A stretch of 62,040 bases of DNA, filler included, from Platydemus manokwari (Eukaryota): assembly GCA_037951405.1 (NCBI GenBank). It is 4 parts of 4 records of this genome, joined end to end, with 100 filler letters (N's around TTAATTAATTAA, not from the genome) between each part and the next. Parts side by side here need not be neighbours in the genome. Positions count along the whole stretch, not along the records: positions 39,654 to 51,366 come from JBBMOY010503331.1; 3 more parts are not named here. The stretch is one strand, 5' to 3'. Every line of letters starts with the position of its first letter. Position 1 is the first letter of the stretch. The translations under genes and the position numbers were made by a program. The notes under the pieces were generated by a model. It was given only the letters and a program-made list of their open reading frames with translations, searched no databases and was not told the origin of the DNA. Positions 18,046 to 53,983 of the stretch are shown one piece after another.

Positions 18046-18144
18046 NNNNNNNNNNNNNNNNNNNNNNNNNNNNNNNNNNNNNNNNNNNNTTAATTAATTA
18101 ANNNNNNNNNNNNNNNNNNNNNNNNNNNNNNNNNNNNNNNNNNN
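18046..18144. other. Artificial contig joint (N-TTAATTAATTAA-N)
   Basis: Six-frame stop linker at 18090-18101 inside an N run. Confidence 0.95.
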
Positions 18145-18342
18145 NTATGCGTGTGTGTGTGTGTGTGGACATATGTGTGAATCTTCTTGTCAAATGAAAT
18201 TTCAGAAATTTTACTCGACAAAACATGAAAATGTTAAAAACTTCTTTATTTAATAATTAGATAATATAATAATTATATTCATTTTTTGATCAGTATGTAA
18301 TACTTGTCTTAATGAATGGCTTAAAATTAAAATAAATCTTAC

Positions 18343-37439: not shown

Positions 37440-38020
37440 AATTTTGAGTTTGTGCTTTGTAATATTGATATACAATTATATTCAATGATTGGCTTCATTA
37501 TTATGGAATCACATATTTAAAAATAAATTGATGAATATTATTTGAGTTCGACATATTTCCAGCAATCATCGATCAGTCCGGATTTGAGAGTCTTCATTAA
37601 GGTTTGATATTCAATGTATTAAACAAATTCTATTTCGGTGTTTTTATATCGTTTAATTAAAATTGAAAATTTCATTACAAAACAATTCAGTATTATTTAA
37701 ACTTCACCATCTTTTATAAATATAACGGGATATTTTTTCTCGATAAATCAATTTTTCCCGAAGCTCCAATCCATTTGGAATCCTTTGGTTGATAAACGTC
37801 AGCTTGATAACAAAAAATAATTTCACGCTGTTGGTGTGTATTGTATCGACATAATCGTAAAATCATTTGCTGTTTAATAGAGATTACTAGTAATTTATTT
37901 CGTCTAACTTAAATTTGATATTTTCAATGTCATTTTAACAAAATCTGGTTACAATTTGGAAAAAATGAAATTCACACACCAGGATATGAGAACAATTTTC
38001 AGAAACCAATCAACCCATTA
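37440..38020 (-). mobile_element. MULE transposase remnant
   Basis: CEFHFFQ near 37960-37980 matches the MULE CxFHxxQ motif; the rest is decayed. Confidence 0.4.
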
Positions 38021-38036
38021 AATAGCCTTTAACGTT

Positions 38037-38700
38037 GTGGGGTTTTAAAAATTTAAAAATGTCTTATAAACTAAAAGATAATAATTTGTTGAAATAATTG
38101 GAGTAATATCAAGTAAGAATAGGGGCTTACATGGCGATCAATAAGCATCTGGATACGATTCTGAGGTGGGAAAGATACAGAAAAGATGTAGAAAATATAT
38201 AAAGAAAATCAAGAAGATTTAATGAATAGAGAAGGAATAGAGATTTATATTTAGATAAATATATGGAGAGATAATTCATTGCAGAGATAATTAGGAATAT
38301 ATAGAAGAAAGAAGGACGTGGGGATTTAAAAATTTGAATTTAAAAATGTTTTATAAACTTATATCAAAAGATAATAATTTGTTTAAATAATTGGAGTAAT
38401 ATAAAGTAATTATAGTTGCTTACATGGCGACCAAGCATTTGGATAAGATTCTGAGAAGGTCTATATTATAGAAGTATAGAAGAGAAAAAGATGTAGAAAA
38501 TATATAAAGAAAATCAAAAATATTTAAAGAAGAGAGAAGAAATAGAAATTTATATTTATATAAATATATGGAGAATTCATTACAGAGATAATTAGGAATA
38601 TATAGAAGAAAGAGGGACGTGAGGATTTAAAAATTTTAATTGAAAAATGTTTTATAAACTAATATTAAAAGATAATATTTGGTCTAAATAATTGGATTAA
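38037..38700. repeat. Tandem repeat with a ~280-300 bp unit, about 2.3 copies; a related inverted fragment lies at about 16100-16290
   Basis: Units start GTG(G/A)GG(T/A)TTTAAAAATTT at about 38037, 38318 and 38619 and share AAAGATGTAGAAAATATATAAAGAAAATCAA and CAGAGATAATTAGGAATATATA. Confidence 0.9.
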
Positions 38701-39553
38701 AATATAATCCCTTGTCATGGCCTTTCAATTCGTTTACAATGCATGCTGCATAAAGTGACAGCAGCTTACAATCGTTATTGGTATAAAGCAGAAAACTGAA
38801 AAGTATCAGTAATGACATACACTATTGTATATCGGTATTGAAGATTGTTGGTTGTTCTCTATGTTCAATATATTTTCTTCAAAATTAGAATTATTTCATT
38901 AAATATATGATAATTTTCTGATCGTGTGAAACATCTTCGATAACTGTTGATAACATTATCAGATTGATATCTCAGAATTGTAATAAATAATATTGAAGAG
39001 GAGGAGTTAATACGAGCAAATGTGAATCATTTGACCAATAATCATCATCTGTTAATGCCATCGATAAATATTAACGATTTATAACGATTGAACACTCGAT
39101 TGATGATCATTTGAATGAAAAATTTTTTTTTTAATATATAATTATTGATTAATATTTTATTTACTGATTTTTATGATTTCTATTATTCATCTCTAATTAA
39201 TTTGCTAATCTATCTCATGAACATGAATTGTTTTTATTGCCTGCGAATCAATACATAAATGACCGTTTTGATTATATCGATATTCAATCTGTTAAATTGA
39301 TTGTTTTGTTTGTATAATGTTTTAATAAATATTTGATAAATTTCTGATTAAGCTTCATAAAATTATCATTGTGTGTGTGCGTGTGCATGTGTTAAGGATT
39401 TATAATACTCGATATCTATTGGGTAGTCGTTTATTATTATTGGATTTGTCAATGTATGTCGTGAATGACAGTAATTTATGGCTTGTTTTTAAAATAATAT
39501 ATGTTACTCTCCATCATATATTCATACACTAACAAATCCATATGGTTTATATA

Positions 39554-39653
39554 NNNNNNNNNNNNNNNNNNNNNNNNNNNNNNNNNNNNNNNNNNNNTTA
39601 ATTAATTAANNNNNNNNNNNNNNNNNNNNNNNNNNNNNNNNNNNNNNNNNNNN
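39554..39653. other. Artificial contig joint (N-TTAATTAATTAA-N)
   Basis: Linker at 39598-39609. Confidence 0.95.
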
Positions 39654-40227
39654 ATTTGAACAATATTGGTACTGCACGAGAAACAATAATTATTGCCGGA
39701 GGCTCGAATGAATACTGGATGATTTGTTTGTTAACTTGGAGTTGAATCCCTAATGGAATATTTGGACTGAAATCCCGAATGAAATATTTGAGCTGAATTC
39801 CGATCGAAATATTGAGCTGATATCCCGAATGAATTATTTGACTTAATAATGTCGTTGACTTTGTGTGTCGTGAGAAATTGTGGCAAAAATACTGAATTTT
39901 ACTTCAGTATTTATATGGATTTGAAATGTGGACGAATCATTAATTTTGTTCCTGATTTGTGGGTTTCGTTAGTAATATCCACCGTTGTCATGGTATTTGT
40001 ATTTAAATTTGAATTTCTATAGCTATATTTTGGATTGGCATGGCAACGTGGATTAATAATTTGTTGAAAAAATTTTATATCTATTATTAATATCATTCCG
40101 CCCAGACGCCTACATTTTAATTAATGTGGGTTTTCGGTTTTAATTATTATTATTATTATGTAGTTTTAATTATTATTATCATTATGTAGTTTATAGGCTT
40201 GCAGCCTGCATGGGTATCATCCCGACA
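39654..40227 (-). repeat. Putative 3' LTR, truncated by the contig end, containing four ~26-bp tandem repeats at about 39733-39843
   Basis: Starts TG at 40227 directly after the PPT. The internal repeat unit is about GAGCTGAAATCCCGAATGAAATATTT. Confidence 0.68.
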
Positions 40228-40239
40228 TATCTCCCCCCC
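40228..40239 (-). other. Polypurine tract (plus-strand primer)
   Basis: GGGGGGGAGATA immediately 5' of TG. A G7 run is exceptional in this AT-rich DNA. Confidence 0.75.
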
Positions 40240-40490
40240 ACTTTTAGATTTTCGTCCCGAAAATTAGAACAGGAGAAAAAAGGAGGTAGGGTCACAACAA
40301 CTTTTACATAAAATAAATTAATGAATACAGTTTACAATTAAATCGTGAAATTACAGCATACAAGCACAGAATTGATTATCACAAAGATAAAGAGTAAAGA
40401 TAATTGTCAATGATTCACAACAGATTTAATGATAATTGTCAAAAATATGAGTCAAATAACACGAATCACGATAGTTGATAGCCCCGATCC

Positions 40491-42135
40491 TCATTTTCTG
40501 TCATCTGTGAGATCCACTGTGTCCTCGTCCTCCCCTCCTGTTAGGTCCATTAAGACTCTGGTTCCAGATGTTTCCTCCACTGATGTTGCTTTCAGATTTG
40601 GGTTCCTATACTCTAGAAACATAGTTTTCTTTGTTTTCTTGTCAGTGTAGTGGACACCTGTAATGTGCCATTCATAATCGCCTTCCTTAATTACTTTGGC
40701 TATTTTCTCCGGTACTTTTGTTTTCTTGGGATACGGCTTGTTTCGTTTTGGTATCTTTGGTATCGACCAGATGCTTCTTTTTTCAGAAGTAGATTGTAAT
40801 TAGTTGGATGTGCTTGGACCGTATTCTTCAGAGTCTATCTACTTCCATTGGATTAAATTTCTTGCTCTCCTTTTCTGGATGCTTCTTTTTGTGCATACTG
40901 GCTGGGAGAGTGGGTGCCATGATTGGGTCTAATTTTGTTAATACGACTCTGGGCAAAGTGGCCGCATTAATTGTCTGTAGCACTGGTGCTGATGGAACAT
41001 TTTTTTCTGGTTGACTAATAGCTTGATGAGTTTGTTCCTCATCTATGACTAAGTCGCCCATTAATTCGTCTTCTTCTATTTTCATTGGGTGTTCTGTTAC
41101 ATTCTGCACTTGATCTTGCCAGGTTGGTTCCAAATTTAAATAGAGTTGCCTTATGGTCTTTGCATTATTCTCCCTTAAAAGGTCCGAAAGCCTGTCTGGA
41201 ACGTAATTAGGCATAACGGCCTTGCATATCTTTGCCCATTTATATGCTTTGCTAGTGACAAAACCCTTGCTGGCTAAGTTTTGTGCTCTTGCCATATCAC
41301 GGATGCCAATTAGATGATCCGGGTTGATCCCGCATGCTTCTAGTGCATCCGTTATCTTGTATCCGATTATTACCTTTCCTTGAGTAATCTCTCTCAGCTT
41401 ATGTTGACAGAGGATTTCGTTCCACTGTCCTATGATGTTCTTTTCCGTGATGACGTCTGTACCGTCATTTTTCCAATGTCGGACTCGTCGCCGGGGTGCG
41501 ACTCTAGAGTTTATTATTATATTTCCCTGGTAGTTTAGTACCGTGATTGCTACTAGGGAATTTTCGGTTTCCTGCCGTGTCGTCATATTCGCGGTAGCGA
41601 CCATGCGCGCACTTAGGAATAGAATTTTGCTTCGGAGTTCCATTTCCGTCATAGGCATTTTGATAAAAGAATGATACAGGTTCACTTCTTTGAGTGAAAT
41701 TGGTACATTTGGTGTGTGCGTTGTAAAGGGTACATATGGTAGGTACTCATCTCTCTCTTTCGATCACGAGTGTGGTTGTTGGCATTAGAATTTCCACTTG
41801 AGCCTTGGGCAACCTCTGATTACACTCGGTAATTTCCAGGGTTTGGAAGGGGGACATCTCGATGAGCTGATCAAGTGTACCCATCCAGATTGTGATAGGT
41901 TCCCCAGCAGTGTGCAAGTAGCTATGTTGACGTCTCCATGCACCTACTATCCAGTATATTTGCTGGTAGAGCGTCTGAGAGTTGGATGCGGAGGCAAACG
42001 TTTGTGCTTTGTCTCAGAAGACCCTCAATTTGTAAGCTGTGAAATAGAAAATCCCGAGCGTGAATGGTTCTCGCATAATTGATCTATGTCTCCGGTAGTG
42101 TAGATAATATTCAAGAGCGCATCTGATTGTGATCT
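40491..42135 (-). pseudogene. Cargo gene B: unknown N-terminal domain + REX4/ISG20-like exonuclease fold + disordered tail ending in two SIM-like motifs (about 545 codons reconstructed)
   Basis: Track ORF 40828..41685 has ILFLSARMV, AITVLNYQGNIIINSRVAP, QGKVIIGYKITDAL, IGIRDMA and NNAKTIRQLY. It extends 5' across a frameshift in an (AG)n run (LRVF*DK..ASNS..HTAGEPITIW..TTLVIE) and 3' across frameshifts to ...RVLMDLTGGEDEDTVDLTDDRK*. Confidence 0.8.
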
Positions 42136-42699
42136 CCTAATATTTAATGGTTCACCTCCAGTATGAAACCCTTCAGTATCAGATTGTCCATTAAGTTATG
42201 AACATTAGGTAATAAAACAATATATGATAAAAACCATACTTTCCTTGCACTGAATATTTCTTCTATGTAAGATTATATGAAAATTGATCGTCAAATGCAA
42301 AATTAGGTGGTGATTCAAGTATATTATAATCCTCTTAATTTGGTAATACTAGATTTATAGATTAAAAATAGTTTTTTTCAATATTATGGGAAGATTATTA
42401 AATTTGGAATTATGTCGAATTTTAAATTGAAAAGTCTTTGAAACAATTTCATAATAACTAGCTTGAAACTTAGTTTGATTTTGATAAAATACTACTATGA
42501 TTTTACCCTCGGATCACTGTTGTCTTAATCAGTCTCTGGCGAGTTCTAATCAAGCCCAAGGTAATCCTTAAACCTTATATTTATTTATTATTTCACCTCG
42601 CAATCAAATCTACATGAAGATAGAAATGATTGGCAACAATGATCCAAAAGGGGTAATTTAATTCTATCAGTCTCGATTATTTTATAACTTTTTATGCCT

Positions 42700-43150
42700 C
42701 TATTATCGATCTACAACGTAACTCTTCTTTATAGCTAAACTTTTTTTAATATATAAAAGCAAAATTACAGTTTGCAATACTAATATACACCAAAATAAAA
42801 AGTTGGATCAACGGCTAAACCTACAATTCAAATGATTGCAGTTAATACGTCCTTCTCTTGGAGTAAAACCGAATACCAACGATGTTTTTCAGCACAGTTC
42901 TATAATAATATATTAGGCGATACGTACTATAATTTCAATAAGTTTGTTACAAAACAATCTAACTCACTACTTAAAATGATAATATGGTATTGATATGTTC
43001 TGTTGTCGAGCAAATCTTCTACAAAATTCGAGTGATTCGGCTTAATAGTGAAGTTTCCGCACTATGTAATCTAGTGGTTTCAATAATGGGGCGAGTTCTG
43101 ATGTTTCGAACTCCTATTTATATGGTTTTTATTTGTCGCACTTAAATGCT
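42700..43150 (-). pseudogene. Heavily decayed ORF remnant between cargo genes A and B
   Basis: Coding-like frame EFETSELAPLLKPLDYIVRKLHY*AESLEFCRRFARQQNISIPYYHFK*. No family recognised. Confidence 0.25.
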
Positions 43151-43791
43151 TAAAATCGTACATGATATTTTAATTCCTCAAGGATTTTCCAAATATTAAC
43201 TATTATTTTCTTTTAACTATGGAATGTTATTGCCAAGGATATTATTAATAATATTTAAACTCTTTTCTTTAAATATTGTTTCCCTTAAATTTTATTTTAT
43301 TTTATTATAATTTATGTTTTTTGATGCCATTACAAGTAAACTATATATAAAAGTAATCTATATATTTTTATAATATTAATACTTTATTAATATTTTTATA
43401 ATATTAATATGTAATTAATATTTTTCATTAGATATTAATCCTTCATCTGGAATTCATGAACAAAATTGATACAATTGACAACATGACAAATGTATCGAAA
43501 AATGATTAATACATCGCCTCAATATTTGGTCGATGTTACTTAAAATATAATGATACATTTCAATGTATCAAACCTAACTTTTTAGCCGTGACATAATTGT
43601 TTTTTGTTACATATCCTAATTAACGCTATTATTATTATAAAACTTGGTTTTAATTACTTTTATACATTAATATGAATGACTAAATTTATACATCTATAAA
43701 CAGCTTAATCACTTTTATACGTTTATATGAATTATTAGAGATAAGACACAGAAATAAAATTAATAAGAAAAGTATTATTCATACAAAATTG

Positions 43792-45542
43792 CTAAAGTTT
43801 CAATGTTATTTTTCTACTTGGCCCAATCCCCAACACTACTGGGGGACTGATGAAGCATATCCCCATGCTTTTCTTTTTTGAAGACTCATCGGGGCTGTCG
43901 AATCTTTTTCTTTTCCTTCCTTCCGTCTCGGCTGGCTGGCTATTTGTATTTATCCACAACTCTCCTGGGATAAATTCTTTTGCATTGGGATTCAAGTTAG
44001 AATTTTTGACGATGTCCTGATGGATATATTCTTCTGCATCTCGCCATAACTGCTCGAATTCCTCTTCTTTTTCCTTTACTCCCATCTGCTCTTCAATTAT
44101 AGATTCCTACCATAGCTGTTATAAAGATCTTTCCAAAGTAAGCTTATAATCCTCACAGTCTATATCATTATCTGGTTCCATTTCTTTTTCTGGTCGCTGG
44201 ATTTTGTTAAAATGATTAATTACTTGACCTTTTTCGACTCGTTCGTTGTCCTTTAAAATCTTAAATTCTCGGATATTATTTTTCCAGAGTTTATTTCTTT
44301 TGTTTTCAAGCAGCTGCTCTTCTGCTGACTTGAGTTTCCATGTCTGGTTTTTTGCTCTGATAACTGTATTTTCATTTAATAATTCTCTGTCCACCCATTC
44401 GAATATATTGGTGGCCTCGTTTATTATTTCTTGTCCTTCTTGAATTTTCCTTTTCCATCTGGTCTCATCGTTATCATCTCCTTTATCTTGCCAGTTTGAT
44501 TCAATTTTTTGATATATGTTCATCACTTCATCCAGCTCGTCGCTTCAATTTTCGTGTTGTGGCATTTTTCTTCCCACAATAGCCGCATGCATTTCTTTTA
44601 AGTTTTTACTTAGAAAATACCGGCTTTTTTTTCATCTCTTCTTCTACAGCGATTGAGCCTTTTAATTCTCTCACTCCGAGTACTTCTTCAAGGTAGATTG
44701 ATACCGCTTTCAATTTTCTCTTCATGTCGTAGCCAACTAGTATTTTCCCTTTTGTGATTTCTATTACTTTTCTGCTCGCGTGTCCTGCATCTATGGTCCC
44801 CCTGATTACTGTTTCTGCAGTGTGAGACTTGTTTTCCTGATAATGCTTGATCTCCGATCTTGGGGAGCATATTTGATTAAAAATATCCTCTCTCTTGAAA
44901 TTTTTCAGACATATCCACACTGGATATTCCTTGTTGTTGAAGTTAATGGCGTATTTTGCATCAAAATAGACGATCAACTCTATGATTTCTTGTTGGTTCA
45001 TCGGAGTGATGTTTCTCATGAATGACATTTCCTTTTTTGGTTGTAAGAATGGTAGATTCTGGAGGTTAAATATTTGTGGCTCCCTAAACTCCACTGGCTC
45101 TAACTGGTTGGGCTCCACCAGTTCGATCATTATGGTATATGGGATAGACTTTGATTTTATTCTTATTTGGGAATACTCATTCTGGAAATTCGGCCTGCCT
45201 TGCGGTTTTAAATAGATAGAAATTGATGATTGTGACTCCAGATCAATTTTTTCCCAGAATATTCTATGAGGATATCCGATTGTACATTGTGAATTTTTAT
45301 TCTTGTGGGGCGAATTGAAGTGCTGGCAATATTTCTTTGATTTTAAACCCTCCTTGTTCTTGCGAATGGAGAATAATTACAGATCTCTTTGACTGAGACG
45401 CCGTCTTTAGATTATTTGGGATGTGGGTTACATCTGAGAACACTCTTCTTTCTATGCCAAACGGTGTCTTTCTGACTGCCGCACGAATGGCTGTATAGAA
45501 TCTTCTAGGGTAGAATTGAATGATGCTAGTTGCAGGTTCCAT
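43792..45542 (-). pseudogene. Cargo gene A: same N-terminal domain + exonuclease fold + tail with PAM2 motif and basic NLS (about 580 codons reconstructed)
   Basis: Track ORFs 45297..45542, 44606..45130, 44119..44526 and 43792..44085 join through two frameshifts and three stops. Motifs: IVYFDAKYA, IFNQICSP, KGKILVGYD, VLGVREL, SKNLKEMHAAIVG, VMNIYQKIESNWQD, SNLNPNAKEFIPG, RKRKR. Confidence 0.8.
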
Positions 45543-45550
45543 TACTATTA

Positions 45551-45670
45551 CTGAGATGTTAAAATTGATGTTAAAACTAATGGGGAAAACTCTTACCTTT
45601 GACGTTGTTGATCGAGAGTTTTTTCGTAAAAAATTATGACTATTGTCAGCTAGGGGGTCGTTTTTATATA
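45551..45670 (-). promoter_or_regulatory. Candidate internal promoter (TATATAAA at about 45670-45663) and 46-nt 5'-UTR intron (45596-45551) of cargo gene A
   Basis: AAG|GTAAGA...TTTTAACATCTCAG| ends 8 nt before the ATG at 45542. The length equals that of the host RPL23A intron. Confidence 0.5.
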
Positions 45671-46730
45671 TAATTTTAGCGCTCGATTTTGATTGGCTAA
45701 ATTTGTATGGACAATTTTCTCATTGGGTAGGATTTTTGGGGTAATTTTCTTATTGGTTAATTCATTTTCTTTTATTATTTCATCCGTTGGGAATTTTCTA
45801 AAAATATTAATTACATCAAACAAAATACCATGCTTGATTTTATATTTACAAAATTTAAATACTGTATGCATTCCTTGAAATAAAAGATTACTATTATGTT
45901 TACATAAATTGAAACCATTAAATACAATTTATACATCAAATTCTGGTATTTACATAAATTGTTTTCGTTTATTTCCCTCAAGTAACTATTAAATTCAAAA
46001 TCAAGGCTATTTATATACATATTTATTTTTTGTTCACATTGACACATATAAATTGATTAAAATTAAATAATTAGAAATTTTACAGCTAAACCTTTCTATA
46101 TACATATTGATTTTATCCTGCTATAAGTTGACTTCCTATACACGAGGGTTATCCCTATAATATTTTTTATACAGTTTATAACTTATGTACATCATCATTA
46201 TGGTGGTCAAGCTAGAGATTACTGCTCCAATTAGTATTACATTTAGGGTGATTTCATTTTGGGGTTTTTACTACTAATGGGGGTTATACTACTATTAATT
46301 AATGTTCTCATGATTTTTGTCGTTGTTTTACTAATGGGTTTTGTTGTTGTCTTTCTTACAAGGGGTTCTAACGTTATTTGTTCTCGATGAATTATGAACT
46401 TGGGATTGCTTTTTTCATAATACCAGAAATATATATTTACAGGGTTTTTGATGTCAACATTCCGGGTGATCATTCCTTCTGTGGAGTTTATATAATAACG
46501 ATGTTCATTTAAATGCACTTTTACTTTAAAACACTTTAGATCATCCCAAATGATTTTAATTTGATCTAGCATTTTTCGATGAATATTTTTCGGGGTAACT
46601 CGGGGATTTGTACTATCATTGTTGTAACATCATTTCCTTTTCTTATTTCTCGCTGATAGATTCTAGCTGCACATTCCAAAAAGGTAAAGAGCTTGACAAT
46701 GAAATGATATTGTTATTAACGATTAAACAT
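45650..46730 (-). pseudogene. Cargo gene D: candidate type-I membrane protein (possibly env-like), decayed
   Basis: A hydrophobic N-terminal stretch (HFIVKLFTFLECAA), an ectodomain-like ORF 46243..46572 with a Thr/Ser-rich stalk (KTTTKPISKTTTK), then a hydrophobic segment LYLMVSIYVNIIVIFYF and a basic tail, spread over several frames. Confidence 0.35.
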
Positions 46731-46749
46731 GCAAACTTCTGAGGTATCT

Positions 46750-47370
46750 TGCCTTAGTCCAGAAATTCATTCAACTTTGGAGAATCTCTTAGGATCATAT
46801 ATCTTAATTTTTATTTCATTTGATCGTGAATAATTTTGGTTCTCTTATCTCCTTATTTGTTTACGGTTTGTTGCCTTCTGGTAATATTGATTGAGGTTTT
46901 ACAATTTCCTTTCTGGGTACTTGGTGTTTTTTGTATTTGCTTAATATTATTTTTGACTATTTGTTAGGTTTTTGGTTTGATTTCTTCTTTTTCCTCGTCT
47001 ATTGTTTTTTCCTTTACTTTCTATCATCCGAATAATATGTGTTTGTTACACATGCGAGGTGATTATTTTATTCTAGCTCTATTATTTTCTCAGGTTTTAT
47101 GAATTTTCCTCACATGATAAGATGCTAGAGTCTTGATGTTATATATTCCATTACTTCCCCTGTCACTCGCCTCCGTAAATATTAGCGTGATTGATAATTC
47201 TTTCAAGCCACTTAAATATTCTGAAGATTTAACTAATTGACATTTAAGTTCAAAATACCAAATCGCAATTTTTAAAAATTTGATAATATAAGCTTGATAT
47301 TCAAACAAGTCAGAAGGATTTAGAATCTGTTTACTTACCTGGACTCCAACAAATAAAGTTTGTTGCTGCT
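46750..47370 (-). pseudogene. Cargo gene E: 5'-truncated third paralog of the exonuclease-fold family
   Basis: QTLFVGVQ..DLFEYQAYIIKFLK..SEYLSGLKELS..NIKTLASYHVRKIHKT*EN aligns with LGVREL/IGIRDM and NAKTIRQLYLNLEPTWQD, with TGA at the conserved Trp. Confidence 0.55.
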
Positions 47371-47880
47371 ATGTATCACTGCTATATAAAATATAAATAT
47401 TGCAAATATTATATACGCTGGTATTTATTGTAGAAATACAGAGTTAAAACAAAGTAAAACAATACTGTTTATTGAATTAAAACAAATAATTTAAAAGACA
47501 AAATTAATTTATACAGTGTAGCCTAGTGTGTACGCACTTTGGTACCATAAAATATGGCAATACCGTTAACGTACTTTATATAATAATTATAATTGATTAT
47601 AATATAAAAATTATTTTTAATTAATTATCAGATTGAACTACGATCATCCATCATATGCGTAGCTCAATCTGTCATTCATTATGAATTGGATTTTCATTCT
47701 CCAACAGAATTTATCCTGACAGCAATGATAGGTCGAGATTTATTGCTTGTCAGCGCTTTTAAACCCCGTTGGGTTCTGCGTGAATTTTAAGCAACAATAT
47801 AGTAACCTTGGGTTTTGGATCACTTGATGAATTGGTCTCAAAATTATTATATGCACAGATAGTTATTTTCTAGATTTCTT

Positions 47881-48068
47881 TTAGTCCTATCTGTCTCTGG
47901 TTCAGGCACTGATGAGACACATGAAAGGCCGAAATATAAAACTATCTGCATCACAAAACCACCATTATCGTCTTCGCAGCCATCGTTCATAAAGTTTCCG
48001 CCAGATCGTCCTATATATCTCTGAACCGGGATACTGATGAGACCTATGGAGGGCCGAAATAGGACTAA
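47881..48068 (+). ncRNA. Tandem (double) hammerhead ribozyme
   Basis: Two CUGAUGA boxes (47909-47915, 48034-48040), each followed by a 15-nt G...C-closed stem II and GAAA (47931-47934, 48056-48059). NUH sites are AUC at 47889-47891 and AUA at 48013-48017. Stem III pairs TTAGTCCTA with TAGGACTAA, and stem I pairings are available. Confidence 0.85.
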
Positions 48069-49152
48069 TTTTTCAAAAAAGGTAGTTTATTCATTTAGTT
48101 ATTTATTTGTTTATTGTATCTTGACCGCTTAACACAAACAATAACAATTGAAACAAAACAATAAAATGAATATGACTGATTTAAACATGAATTTAGACCA
48201 TGGGCAGATAAATAACAAAACTCCATTATGGACACAAAATAACCTCAATGTAACAATAAAGCGCTTGCTGCCTGGGTGACTGGACAAGCATTTCTACAAA
48301 AAGGAAAGTGGGGGACCAAAAGGGAATTCTTAACAAATTTTAAAAGACCGCGAGGCTAAAAGTAGCCATGAATCTGTAATTAATTACAATGATAATAAGA
48401 AATTAACTCATCTTGGCTTGAAATACTTTCAGAATAATTGTAATAATGAATATCGAAACCGAATAAAATGATCATCAATAATAATTGATTTCAATCAAAA
48501 ATTTTAATAAATTTCTTGAACTAATATTGAATGCCAAATATTGTATTTCATAGCTGCATCGATTACCAAGAGAAATACGATATTGATTTCAATTTATCTG
48601 AGAATTAAATCGATTTTATTAAACTAAATATCTCCGGCAGGTCAATTTACAGCGAATATTTTGCAAGTTTTATAGAATCAAGTTAACAATAATCAATTTT
48701 AAAAGGATTAATGTTCATGGTTCACATGTTAAGCAGGAAGAATTTATAAACAATCACCGACAAGAAATTATTAGAAAACACCAACATAAAATCACAAATA
48801 TTTGAATTGGAATAAAATACATATTTTATTGACTTTTATGTAACATAATCAGAACCAAGAGAACATTGATACCATGCACAATGAGAATGAAAACCTAAAC
48901 ACAACATATACTCTGAAACTAGATTATCATTATCATTATTATTATTTTCATTTAGTTAATAATATTTTATATTTGTCTTTATTGAATTTTAAAATACAGA
49001 TAACCGATAATCAATAAAAAATAGAATAACGATAATAAATATTACAATTACAAATGACATAAATATTTAGTCAAGCTAATATACATTTCGATGTTACCAT
49101 TGTTAATTGCATTCATTTTAAATTCTTGATCGAGTCTGAACACGGAAATTCA

Positions 49153-51366: not shown

Positions 51367-51466
51367 NNNNNNNNNNNNNNNNNNNNNNNNNNNNNNNNNN
51401 NNNNNNNNNNTTAATTAATTAANNNNNNNNNNNNNNNNNNNNNNNNNNNNNNNNNNNNNNNNNNNN
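51367..51466. other. Artificial contig joint (N-TTAATTAATTAA-N)
   Basis: Linker at 51411-51422. Confidence 0.95.
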
Positions 51467-53406: not shown

Positions 53407-53983
53407 ATGGCCGCTAAATCGCATAAGGTTGTTGTTAGAAGAAGACGTCAAGTTAAGGATTCACTTAAAAAGAAGGAAGCTAAAGCTAAGCTCGCAGCAA
53501 AAGCTAAAGTTTCAACTAAAGTTGCTGAACAAGTGAAATCCAAAATTTTAAATGGTGCCCATGTTGGACGAGTTCGTAAAATTCGAGTTTCTCCTAAATT
53601 CAAACGCCCAGTTACATACAAGCCATTGAGAAATCCAAAATACGAAAGATCTTCTTCAACCAGAGAAAATAAGTAAATATATTTTTTGAATACCAATATG
53701 TTTTAATCAGAATTTTAGATTAGATGAATTCCGTATCATCAGACATCCATTGACAACTGAATCTGCAATGAAAATGATTGAAGAAAAGAACACACTTGTT
53801 TTCAACGTAGATCAAAAGGCAAACAAAAACAATATTAAATTGGCCATTAAGAAACTTTACGATATTAAGACTGTTAAAATTAACACTTTAAATTGTATCA
53901 GCAGCAATACTAAAAAAGCATTTGTCAAATTGGCTGCCGATTACGATGCTTTGGATGTTGCTAACAAAATCGGTATCATCTAA
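53407..53983 (+). CDS. RPL23A: 60S ribosomal protein L23a (uL23); exons 53407-53672 and 53719-53983, 176 aa
   Basis: A 46-nt GT-AG intron restores [51 protein letters not shown] at about 53997. Confidence 0.96.

Follow-up and report, generated by a model that had tools for sequence, protein, structure and literature searches.

The window analysed here is the whole 62,040-nucleotide stretch of Platydemus manokwari DNA (GCA_037951405.1) presented above. It comes from an AT-rich genome and carries on its minus strand the decayed remains of two related genes, A and B. The start of gene B lies further upstream and is decayed, and part of its N-terminal jelly-roll (DSBH) domain occupies a separate frame at 41747–42013 (-), recognised by the family N-terminal profile (E 1.5e-4) and by tblastn of the relatives P0002 and P0004. 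The main ORF, 311 amino acids at 40828–41763 (-), combines an ISG20-type DEDDh pseudo-nuclease (about 41700–41110) with a disordered linker. Downstream of it, a tail frame of 102 amino acids, counted from stop to stop (40491–40799 (-)), contains a basic segment, a beta module and an end with two motifs that resemble SUMO-interacting motifs (SIMs). Gene A lies in pieces at 43792–45719 (-), where a jelly-roll part, a DEDDh-like part, a charged region, a PAM2 motif and a basic cluster were identified. The two genes are 25% identical over 121 amino acids (E 6e-12), in agreement with the original prediction that they are paralogs. A third, heavily decayed exonuclease-like fragment of the family was detected at about 3050–3580 (-) (profile E 3.7e-10), with short direct repeats upstream of it at 3998–4097 and 4272–4428.

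In LTR elements, a polypurine tract and the 3' LTR appear as a purine run followed by a sequence starting with TG, and such an arrangement is present after gene B. A polypurine-tract-like run lies at 40230–40245 (-), 245 nt after the gene B stop, and a candidate 3' LTR opens with TGT at 40227, two bases past the run, and extends over 39654–40227 (-) until it is cut at 39653 by a gap. No second LTR copy was found in the window, the candidate itself being incomplete at that gap; the 15 frames scanned gave no gag or pol match in Pfam, and neither was recognised by eye in the upstream translations within the window. Genes A and B are intronless-looking, multi-copy, decayed and A-rich on the sense strand. 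On the evidence of this window, gene B was probably cargo of an LTR element. Upstream of gene A, a coding region at 46139–47140 (-) is decayed and A-rich, includes a stretch rich in Thr and Ser, and finishes with a transmembrane-like segment (hydropathy 2.17 in the frame 46267–46139). It is possibly a third cargo gene, membrane or env-like, and its 46629–46243 piece had no Pfam match.

The candidate LTR contains a 25–26-nt tandem repeat (39739–39841), and a duplicated unit of 290–300 nt lies across the gap from it at 38037–38704. A hairpin before the purine run was no more stable than shuffles (z -0.25); no Rfam family was detected in 38000–49000, and no tRNA was found. Elsewhere, the window includes an RPL23A gene at 53408–53983 (+) with a 38-nt intron at 53673–53710, a C-terminal exon of an oxysterol-binding protein at 6122–6604 (-) (Pfam E 1.5e-32) and a remnant at 8568–8804 (-) that, from its motifs, we take to be mariner-transposase-like. 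The 100-base gaps at 18046–18145, 39554–39653 and 51367–51466, each with a central 12-base palindromic spacer, are artefacts and not sequence features.

The gene B protein family and its catalytic positions

A profile of the exonuclease-like regions of A and B matched 104 proteins at E values up to 0.001, 53 of them at 1e-10, and the weaker matches extend to ordinary cellular exonucleases and to at least one protein matched through its repeats (P0054). Many of the strong matches are 420–660 amino acids long and run past the nuclease domain into a variable linker, and a subset ends in a beta-rich module of 40 residues. The main ORF of gene B matches the family profile at E 7.7e-49, the profile having been built with relatives that B itself had found. 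Word-indexed protein searches with B returned nothing at 171–545 or 546–2000 amino acids; such an index is insensitive here, since the family alignment retrieved only P0001 and P0010.

P0001 is the closest intact relative, and the relatives retrieved are all distant, 16–32% identical to it. Its model, based on a 40-row alignment (pTM 0.63; pLDDT mostly above 87 over residues 21–380, falling as low as 69 in two blocks), consists of two folded domains, a long disordered linker and then the module. The second domain, modelled on P0001 and not on B, aligns with ISG20 at Z 18.0 and an rmsd of 2.9 over 161 residues; the family profile matches ISG20L2 at E 1e-30, and Pfam RNase_T was detected in 19 of the 47 relatives scanned. 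The N-terminal domain is a double-stranded beta-helix with ALKBH6, P4H and ALKBH7 as its nearest structures (Z 11.0–11.4, rmsd 2.6–4.4, 131–141 aligned), and the ESM Atlas held no usable match for it. Intact family proteins join a jelly-roll to a DEDDh domain of ISG20 type and a disordered linker, and many add the beta module. Homology shows that B, when intact, also ran from a jelly-roll through an ISG20-type fold, here lacking its catalytic residues, and a disordered linker to the small beta module, and finished in an acidic, disordered stretch. Neither this pairing of jelly-roll and DEDDh domain nor the C-terminal module has its own assignment in Pfam, the Atlas or the fold searches. In P0029, the linker is enlarged at about residues 640–970 by many short acidic-hydrophobic repeats ahead of the module, and the linkers of P0039 and P0064 have in common a Lys/Pro-rich alternating hydrophobic-basic word, which we take to recall BET ET-domain ligands.

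The columns of the catalytic D, E, D, H and D residues hold S, R, A, L and N in B, which keeps none of the five. All five positions are retained in 29 of 52 relatives, two or fewer in 21 and three in 2 truncated rows, with Asp or Glu allowed at the third position and with matches dropped if they lacked the N-terminal domain or the module or had more than 70 gaps. An active nuclease was therefore rejected for B, and the exonuclease identity originally assigned to the ORF survives as a fold but not as a working enzyme, a loss that the original prediction had overlooked. Compared with ISG20/ISG20L2 (REXO4-type), the family is alike in fold, in profile match and in these 29 relatives, whereas B itself has lost the site and the N-terminal jelly-roll and C-terminal module are unmatched in ISG20/ISG20L2 entries. 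An active 2OG oxygenase was rejected for the N-terminal domain, as the HxD...H iron triad is absent from a 45-row alignment with one conserved His column (39 of 45 rows) and no second reaching 20%.

Gene A keeps one of its three scorable catalytic positions, with at least two catalytic residues lost. Its PAM2 motif at 43998–43966 (-) scores above the Pfam cut-off (E 6.5e-6), as expected from the PABP-directed role proposed for this paralog; PAM2 was absent from the 33 family tails tested. PAN3 reaches PABP via a PAM2 motif, and Foldseek places the DEDD domain of PAN2 first among the matches to the family model. Gene A differs from the PAN2–PAN3 deadenylase in having a nuclease-like fold and PAM2 in one gene and in its lost catalytic residues. 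By analogy, the combination of PAM2 with a PAN2-like fold suggests mimicry of the PAN2–PAN3 logic.

The tail frame and its beta module

The first Met of the tail frame is residue 60, so that only 43 amino acids are visible to an ATG-based ORF track; the ATG-poor open frame with two terminal motifs, described as hidden from that track, is present at its full 102 amino acids. The basic stretch reported ahead of the motifs was also found, as an NLS-like segment, WSIPKIPKRNKPYPKK, at 40769–40722 (-), which opens with a W-x-I-P-K word. The more general word W-x-[IV]-P-[KR] (40755–40769 in the B tail) also occurs in two of 42 family tails, P0031 and P0038 (2/1000 shuffles). For the motif stretch, the original reading is correct and the start at 40556 is not, the Arg of RVLM beginning one codon earlier, at 40559. 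The most conserved part of the frame had been overlooked: a C-terminal beta-hairpin module of 42 residues, delimited by alignment at residues 29–70 (40590–40715 (-)). Modelled with 16 relatives, the tail forms four short strands at residues 37–63 (pLDDT 73–92, pTM 0.34), and its SIM-like end is coil.

Several lines of evidence indicate that the tail frame is almost certainly the C-terminus of gene B. A profile of the C-termini of 16 relatives, with ends chosen by eye and no window sequence included, ranked it first among the 1385 window frames (E 3.3e-4; next 0.1). Selection bias was removed by rebuilding the seed on tree position alone, from the eight sister proteins of B: whether their last 60, 70, 85 or 100 residues were used, the tail frame again ranked first of 1385 (E 1.3e-4 to 5.4e-3), with a score reached by none of 5000 shuffles, while control profiles of module-less relatives placed it 40th to 109th or missed it. 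The tree comprised 39 rows and did not include A, truncated proteins or two rows with long branches; B falls there in a nine-row group (support 81/86), the other eight being dead-nuclease relatives that all end in the module. In AU tests, a position of B with 12 module-less active relatives was rejected (p 1e-4); one with five module-less dead relatives was not (p 0.10), which tells against the assignment. The assignment of the tail to gene B made in the original prediction is upheld by the profile ranks and by the tree group.

Pfam had no match for the tail, and its model had none at Z >=2 among 48,161 chains or at E 0.001 by Foldseek, which says little, since the module is only a 40-residue hairpin. 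A sequence match to the TAF15 RRM (E 0.003) was discounted, as it spans a single hairpin within a fold of another kind. Predicted as two copies, with the alignment not used, the module scored 0.12 against a mark of 0.32. In the module-less relatives P0005, P0008, P0007, P0011, P0043 and P0044, the C-terminus is made up of short, beta-like stretches of alternating hydrophobic character, which may represent another kind of terminal module.

In the present copy, the stop map shows a broken junction at 40800–40841 (-), with a frame change and an in-frame stop: the exonuclease-like ORF closes at 40830 in a frame other than that of the tail, and stops at 40841 and 40802 close the tail frame. The proposed fusion of the two is therefore discontinuous here; in relatives, the module and the nuclease are carried within one protein. 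The N-terminal domain is broken as well (separate frame 42013–41747 (-)), and this copy of gene B is a pseudogene with at least two breaks ahead of the tail. Translation of this copy cannot run on into the tail. A spliced junction was rejected, since none of the 30 phase-compatible GT-AG pairs is intron-like (T fraction 0.16–0.22, against 0.45 in the host RPL23A intron). The 102 codons have stayed open though the rest of the gene decayed, as they would if the tail were a separate small ORF, or were joined by splicing or programmed frameshifting in a copy that still functions; set against the single-protein relatives, the lack of an intron-like pair and the broken N-terminal domain, such an arrangement is very improbable.

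SIM-like cores and other short motifs

The first core, LMDLT (40539–40553 (-)), is coil in the model and is followed by an acidic spacer (40521–40538 (-)) and by the second core, TVDLT (40506–40520 (-)), which is acidic on both sides and has its Asp 11 residues from that of the first. LMDLT fits the wider type-b pattern [PILVM][ILVM]DLT. Both cores have Asp-Leu-Thr at type-b positions 3–5, and the acidic spacer and acidic end flank them in a disordered region (coil, pLDDT about 50–71). Type-b SIMs are described as strictly requiring D, L and T, with [VIL][VIL]DLT as the strict core (10.1101/2021.06.17.448718), and neither core fits the latter, LMDLT having Met at position 2 and TVDLT Thr at position 1. 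Of the (V/I)DLT consensus with acidic flanks claimed for the pair, the flanks and core 2 (VDLT) hold up and core 1 (MDLT) does not. In the predicted disordered end, the motifs resemble tandem type-b SIMs, and we lean towards the view, from their sequence, that the DLT cores bound SUMO.

The SIM2–SIM3 region of the SUMO-targeted ubiquitin ligase RNF4 similarly has two DLT cores and an acidic spacer in a disordered region, with a spacing of 12 residues (Asp8/Asp20 of the peptide; 10.1101/2021.06.17.448718) against 11 in B. According to PMC3901395, it binds di-SUMO2 at 8.5 uM and mono-SUMO weakly, and acidic flanks raise the affinity. The cores of B are less hydrophobic, and B differs further in having no RING domain, none being detected by Pfam in its frames or in 47 relatives, so B would be able to vie for SUMO chains without ubiquitinating them.

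Two [VILM]DLT words appeared by chance at a rate of 3e-5 in 200,000 shuffles of the whole tail frame and of 7.5e-5 when the last 25 residues alone were shuffled; the word occurs four times in the 1385 window frames (55,262 amino acids), two of these in the tail frame. Aligned in register, the cores share 15 of 33 nt, with synonymous changes between them in the D and L codons, and a recent tandem DNA duplication was therefore rejected as their origin. Across the family, 7 of 42 tails, that of P0030 being trimmed to 110 residues, contain [VI]DL[TSD], with eight occurrences against 1.4 expected (0/1000 shuffles), an enrichment that is post hoc, as the 20 pattern tests were picked after viewing the sequences. 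The strict type-b pattern occurs twice in 33 tails (3/500 block shuffles; 24/1000 shuffles in 42 tails) and a broad hydrophobic-acidic pattern 23 times in 13 of the 33 (1/500 block shuffles), and the SIM-a and SIM-r patterns are not enriched in family tails. Strict SIM-b words are present in the intact relatives P0002 and P0031 and absent from P0001. SIM-like words number 7 in 6790 tail residues versus 2 in 13,923 folded residues, and are commoner in active (5/21) than in dead (1/18) relatives. Only one of the eight sister proteins has such a word, in the linker just after the nuclease domain, and none has one after the module; among these distant relatives, the tandem pair is missing at that position from all eight.

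Basic NLS-like clusters are present in 22 of the 42 family tails (0/1000 shuffles). The linker of B also contains PRVVL (40927–40956 (-); shuffle P 0.014), a PxVxL motif in a disordered region that fits the HP1 chromoshadow ligand pattern and is a predicted ligand; PxVxL occurs in 0 of 42 family tails. A third, SIM-a-like word in the B linker, DLVIDEE (41035–41055 (-)), is weak (shuffle P 0.12). The idea of a nuclear B complementing a PABP-directed A fares well for B, whose basic clusters and PxVxL would fit a nuclear role, and less well for A, since the RKRKR cluster of gene A at 43917–43903 (-) blurs a cytoplasmic-A/nuclear-B split. The picture that the sequences suggest is of a conserved core with fast-changing tails and lineage-specific short motifs, and the motifs appear to be in part a family trait.

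Possible function of gene B and known counterparts

The tail would form the C-terminal quarter of a decayed accessory gene lying just ahead of the polypurine tract and the probable 3' LTR. In an intact B, the dead nuclease fold may still have bound RNA or DNA ends and the basic clusters may have taken the protein into the nucleus, where avidity would let the two DLT cores bind neighbouring SUMO moieties and the one PxVxL would engage HP1 dimers. B would then be drawn to silent chromatin rich in SUMO and HP1, and the element would gain as B vied there with silencing factors of the host that bear SIMs and PxVxL motifs. Since B lacks a RING, it is most simply pictured as a competitor, taking up SUMO chains and HP1 dimers at the loci of its own element. 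We put forward this whole chain, from dead-nuclease scaffold to competition at silent chromatin, tentatively, as the best of the readings considered, and consider it doubtful that counter-silencing was the purpose of B. The protein may have interfered with the host gene-silencing machinery; its close relatives do not keep the motifs.

An HP1-binding motif and SUMO recognition are combined in one protein in the heterochromatin factors SENP7 and CAF-1 p150 (PMC11163940, PMC4161520). Both are host proteins whose binding has been measured, whereas B is a mobile-element pseudogene with one predicted PxVxL. Faster HP1 dissociation has been reported for a single PxVxL module (PMC11163940). In Drosophila, SUMO is described as necessary for piRNA-guided silencing, and SUMO deposited by Su(var)2-10 as recruiting SetDB1/Wde via SIMs (10.1101/533091). 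For B, this pathway is only an analogy. A role of SUMO in Argonaute silencing has reportedly been seen in C. elegans as well.

The cores could be true SIMs with another use, such as targeting SUMO-rich nuclear bodies, promoting the SUMOylation of B itself, steering the nucleic acid or integration complex of the element, or binding a SUMO-like domain of its polyprotein. SIMs serve many roles, the type-B SIM of CAF-1 p150 acting in nucleolar association independently of the HP1 site (PMC4161520), the polyprotein of planarian Burro elements is described as including a SUMO-like domain (PMC6431247), and SIM-like words occur in catalytically intact relatives too. PxVxL and the SIMs jointly point to heterochromatin, however, nothing links this element to Burro, and no polyprotein was recognised in the window, so we regard such uses as unlikely, if serious, contenders. 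It is similarly unlikely that the tail is a real C-terminus whose DLT pair is incidental to a fast-evolving acidic end, the function residing in the beta module and the folded core. The lack of positional conservation in all eight sister proteins would be explained in this way, as would the imperfect cores, and the statistics are post hoc for a motif picked from a 62-kb window; the low rate in local shuffles, the synonymous differences between the cores and the excess of related words in family tails over folded regions argue for more than coincidence.

B may also have favoured silencing or the host, as a Maelstrom- or EXD1-like adaptor with a pseudo-nuclease fold that brings in SUMO/HP1 chromatin, thereby limiting its own element or silencing competitors, or as a member of a host gene family. 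Inactive DEDD derivatives are described as acting in piRNA biogenesis (PMC5408684), the SIM-bearing Wde is a silencing factor (10.1101/533091), and two relatives lie on short contigs of 2117 and 771 nt that are compatible with transcripts. Such a role is rather improbable for genes that, intronless-looking, multi-copy, decayed, A-rich and followed by a polypurine tract, look as expected of mobile cargo, and self-limiting elements are expected to be outcompeted.

Of known retroelement cargo, ORF3 of the bdelloid rotifer LTR retrotransposons Juno and Vesta, as described in PMC5408684, is also an exonuclease gene of the DEDD superfamily that sits 3' as an accessory gene, and exonuclease cargo of bdelloid LTR elements is cited in PMC6338049 too. 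The bdelloid enzymes are RNase D-like DEDDy exonucleases with intact catalytic residues (PMC5408684), whereas the B family is ISG20-type DEDDh, its active relatives having the ExoIII His of DEDDh and not the DEDDy arrangement, and is set apart by its jelly-roll fusion, tandem duplication, often dead nuclease and motif-bearing tails. The Burro giant gypsy elements of planarians are alike in their AT-rich host and in accessory genes aimed at host regulatory pathways (PMC6431247); compared by description only, the domains reported for them (MATH, BIR, BCL2, SUMO-like and env) do not include the architecture of B (PMC6431247, PMC8532177). We found no report of the jelly-roll-plus-DEDDh architecture or of SIM-bearing retrotransposon cargo in the openly available papers searched. 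By its sequence, B would work like a SIM- and PxVxL-bearing chromatin ligand on a pseudo-nuclease scaffold, and it belongs to none of the active ISG20, 2OG oxygenase, STUbL or bdelloid ORF3 classes.

A broader and more speculative proposal, unlikely as a whole, is that some animal LTR retrotransposons carry a counter-defence family built on a jelly-roll and ISG20-like scaffold, in which active nucleases have diverged from dead scaffolds and short motifs that mimic those of the host are exchanged. One element would deploy complementary proteins, A reaching poly(A)-binding protein through PAM2 to affect RNA stability or translation, and B reaching SUMO/HP1 heterochromatin through its tandem SIMs and PxVxL to affect transcriptional silencing, with B antagonising SUMO-dependent silencing. 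Exonuclease cargo genes in LTR elements were already known; to our knowledge, few suppressors of chromatin silencing encoded by transposons have been described in animals. Dozens of natural family members are intact, some active and some dead, and have host-targeting motifs that can be tested, and the B family lets one ask whether a transposon targets the SUMO step on which piRNA silencing depends.
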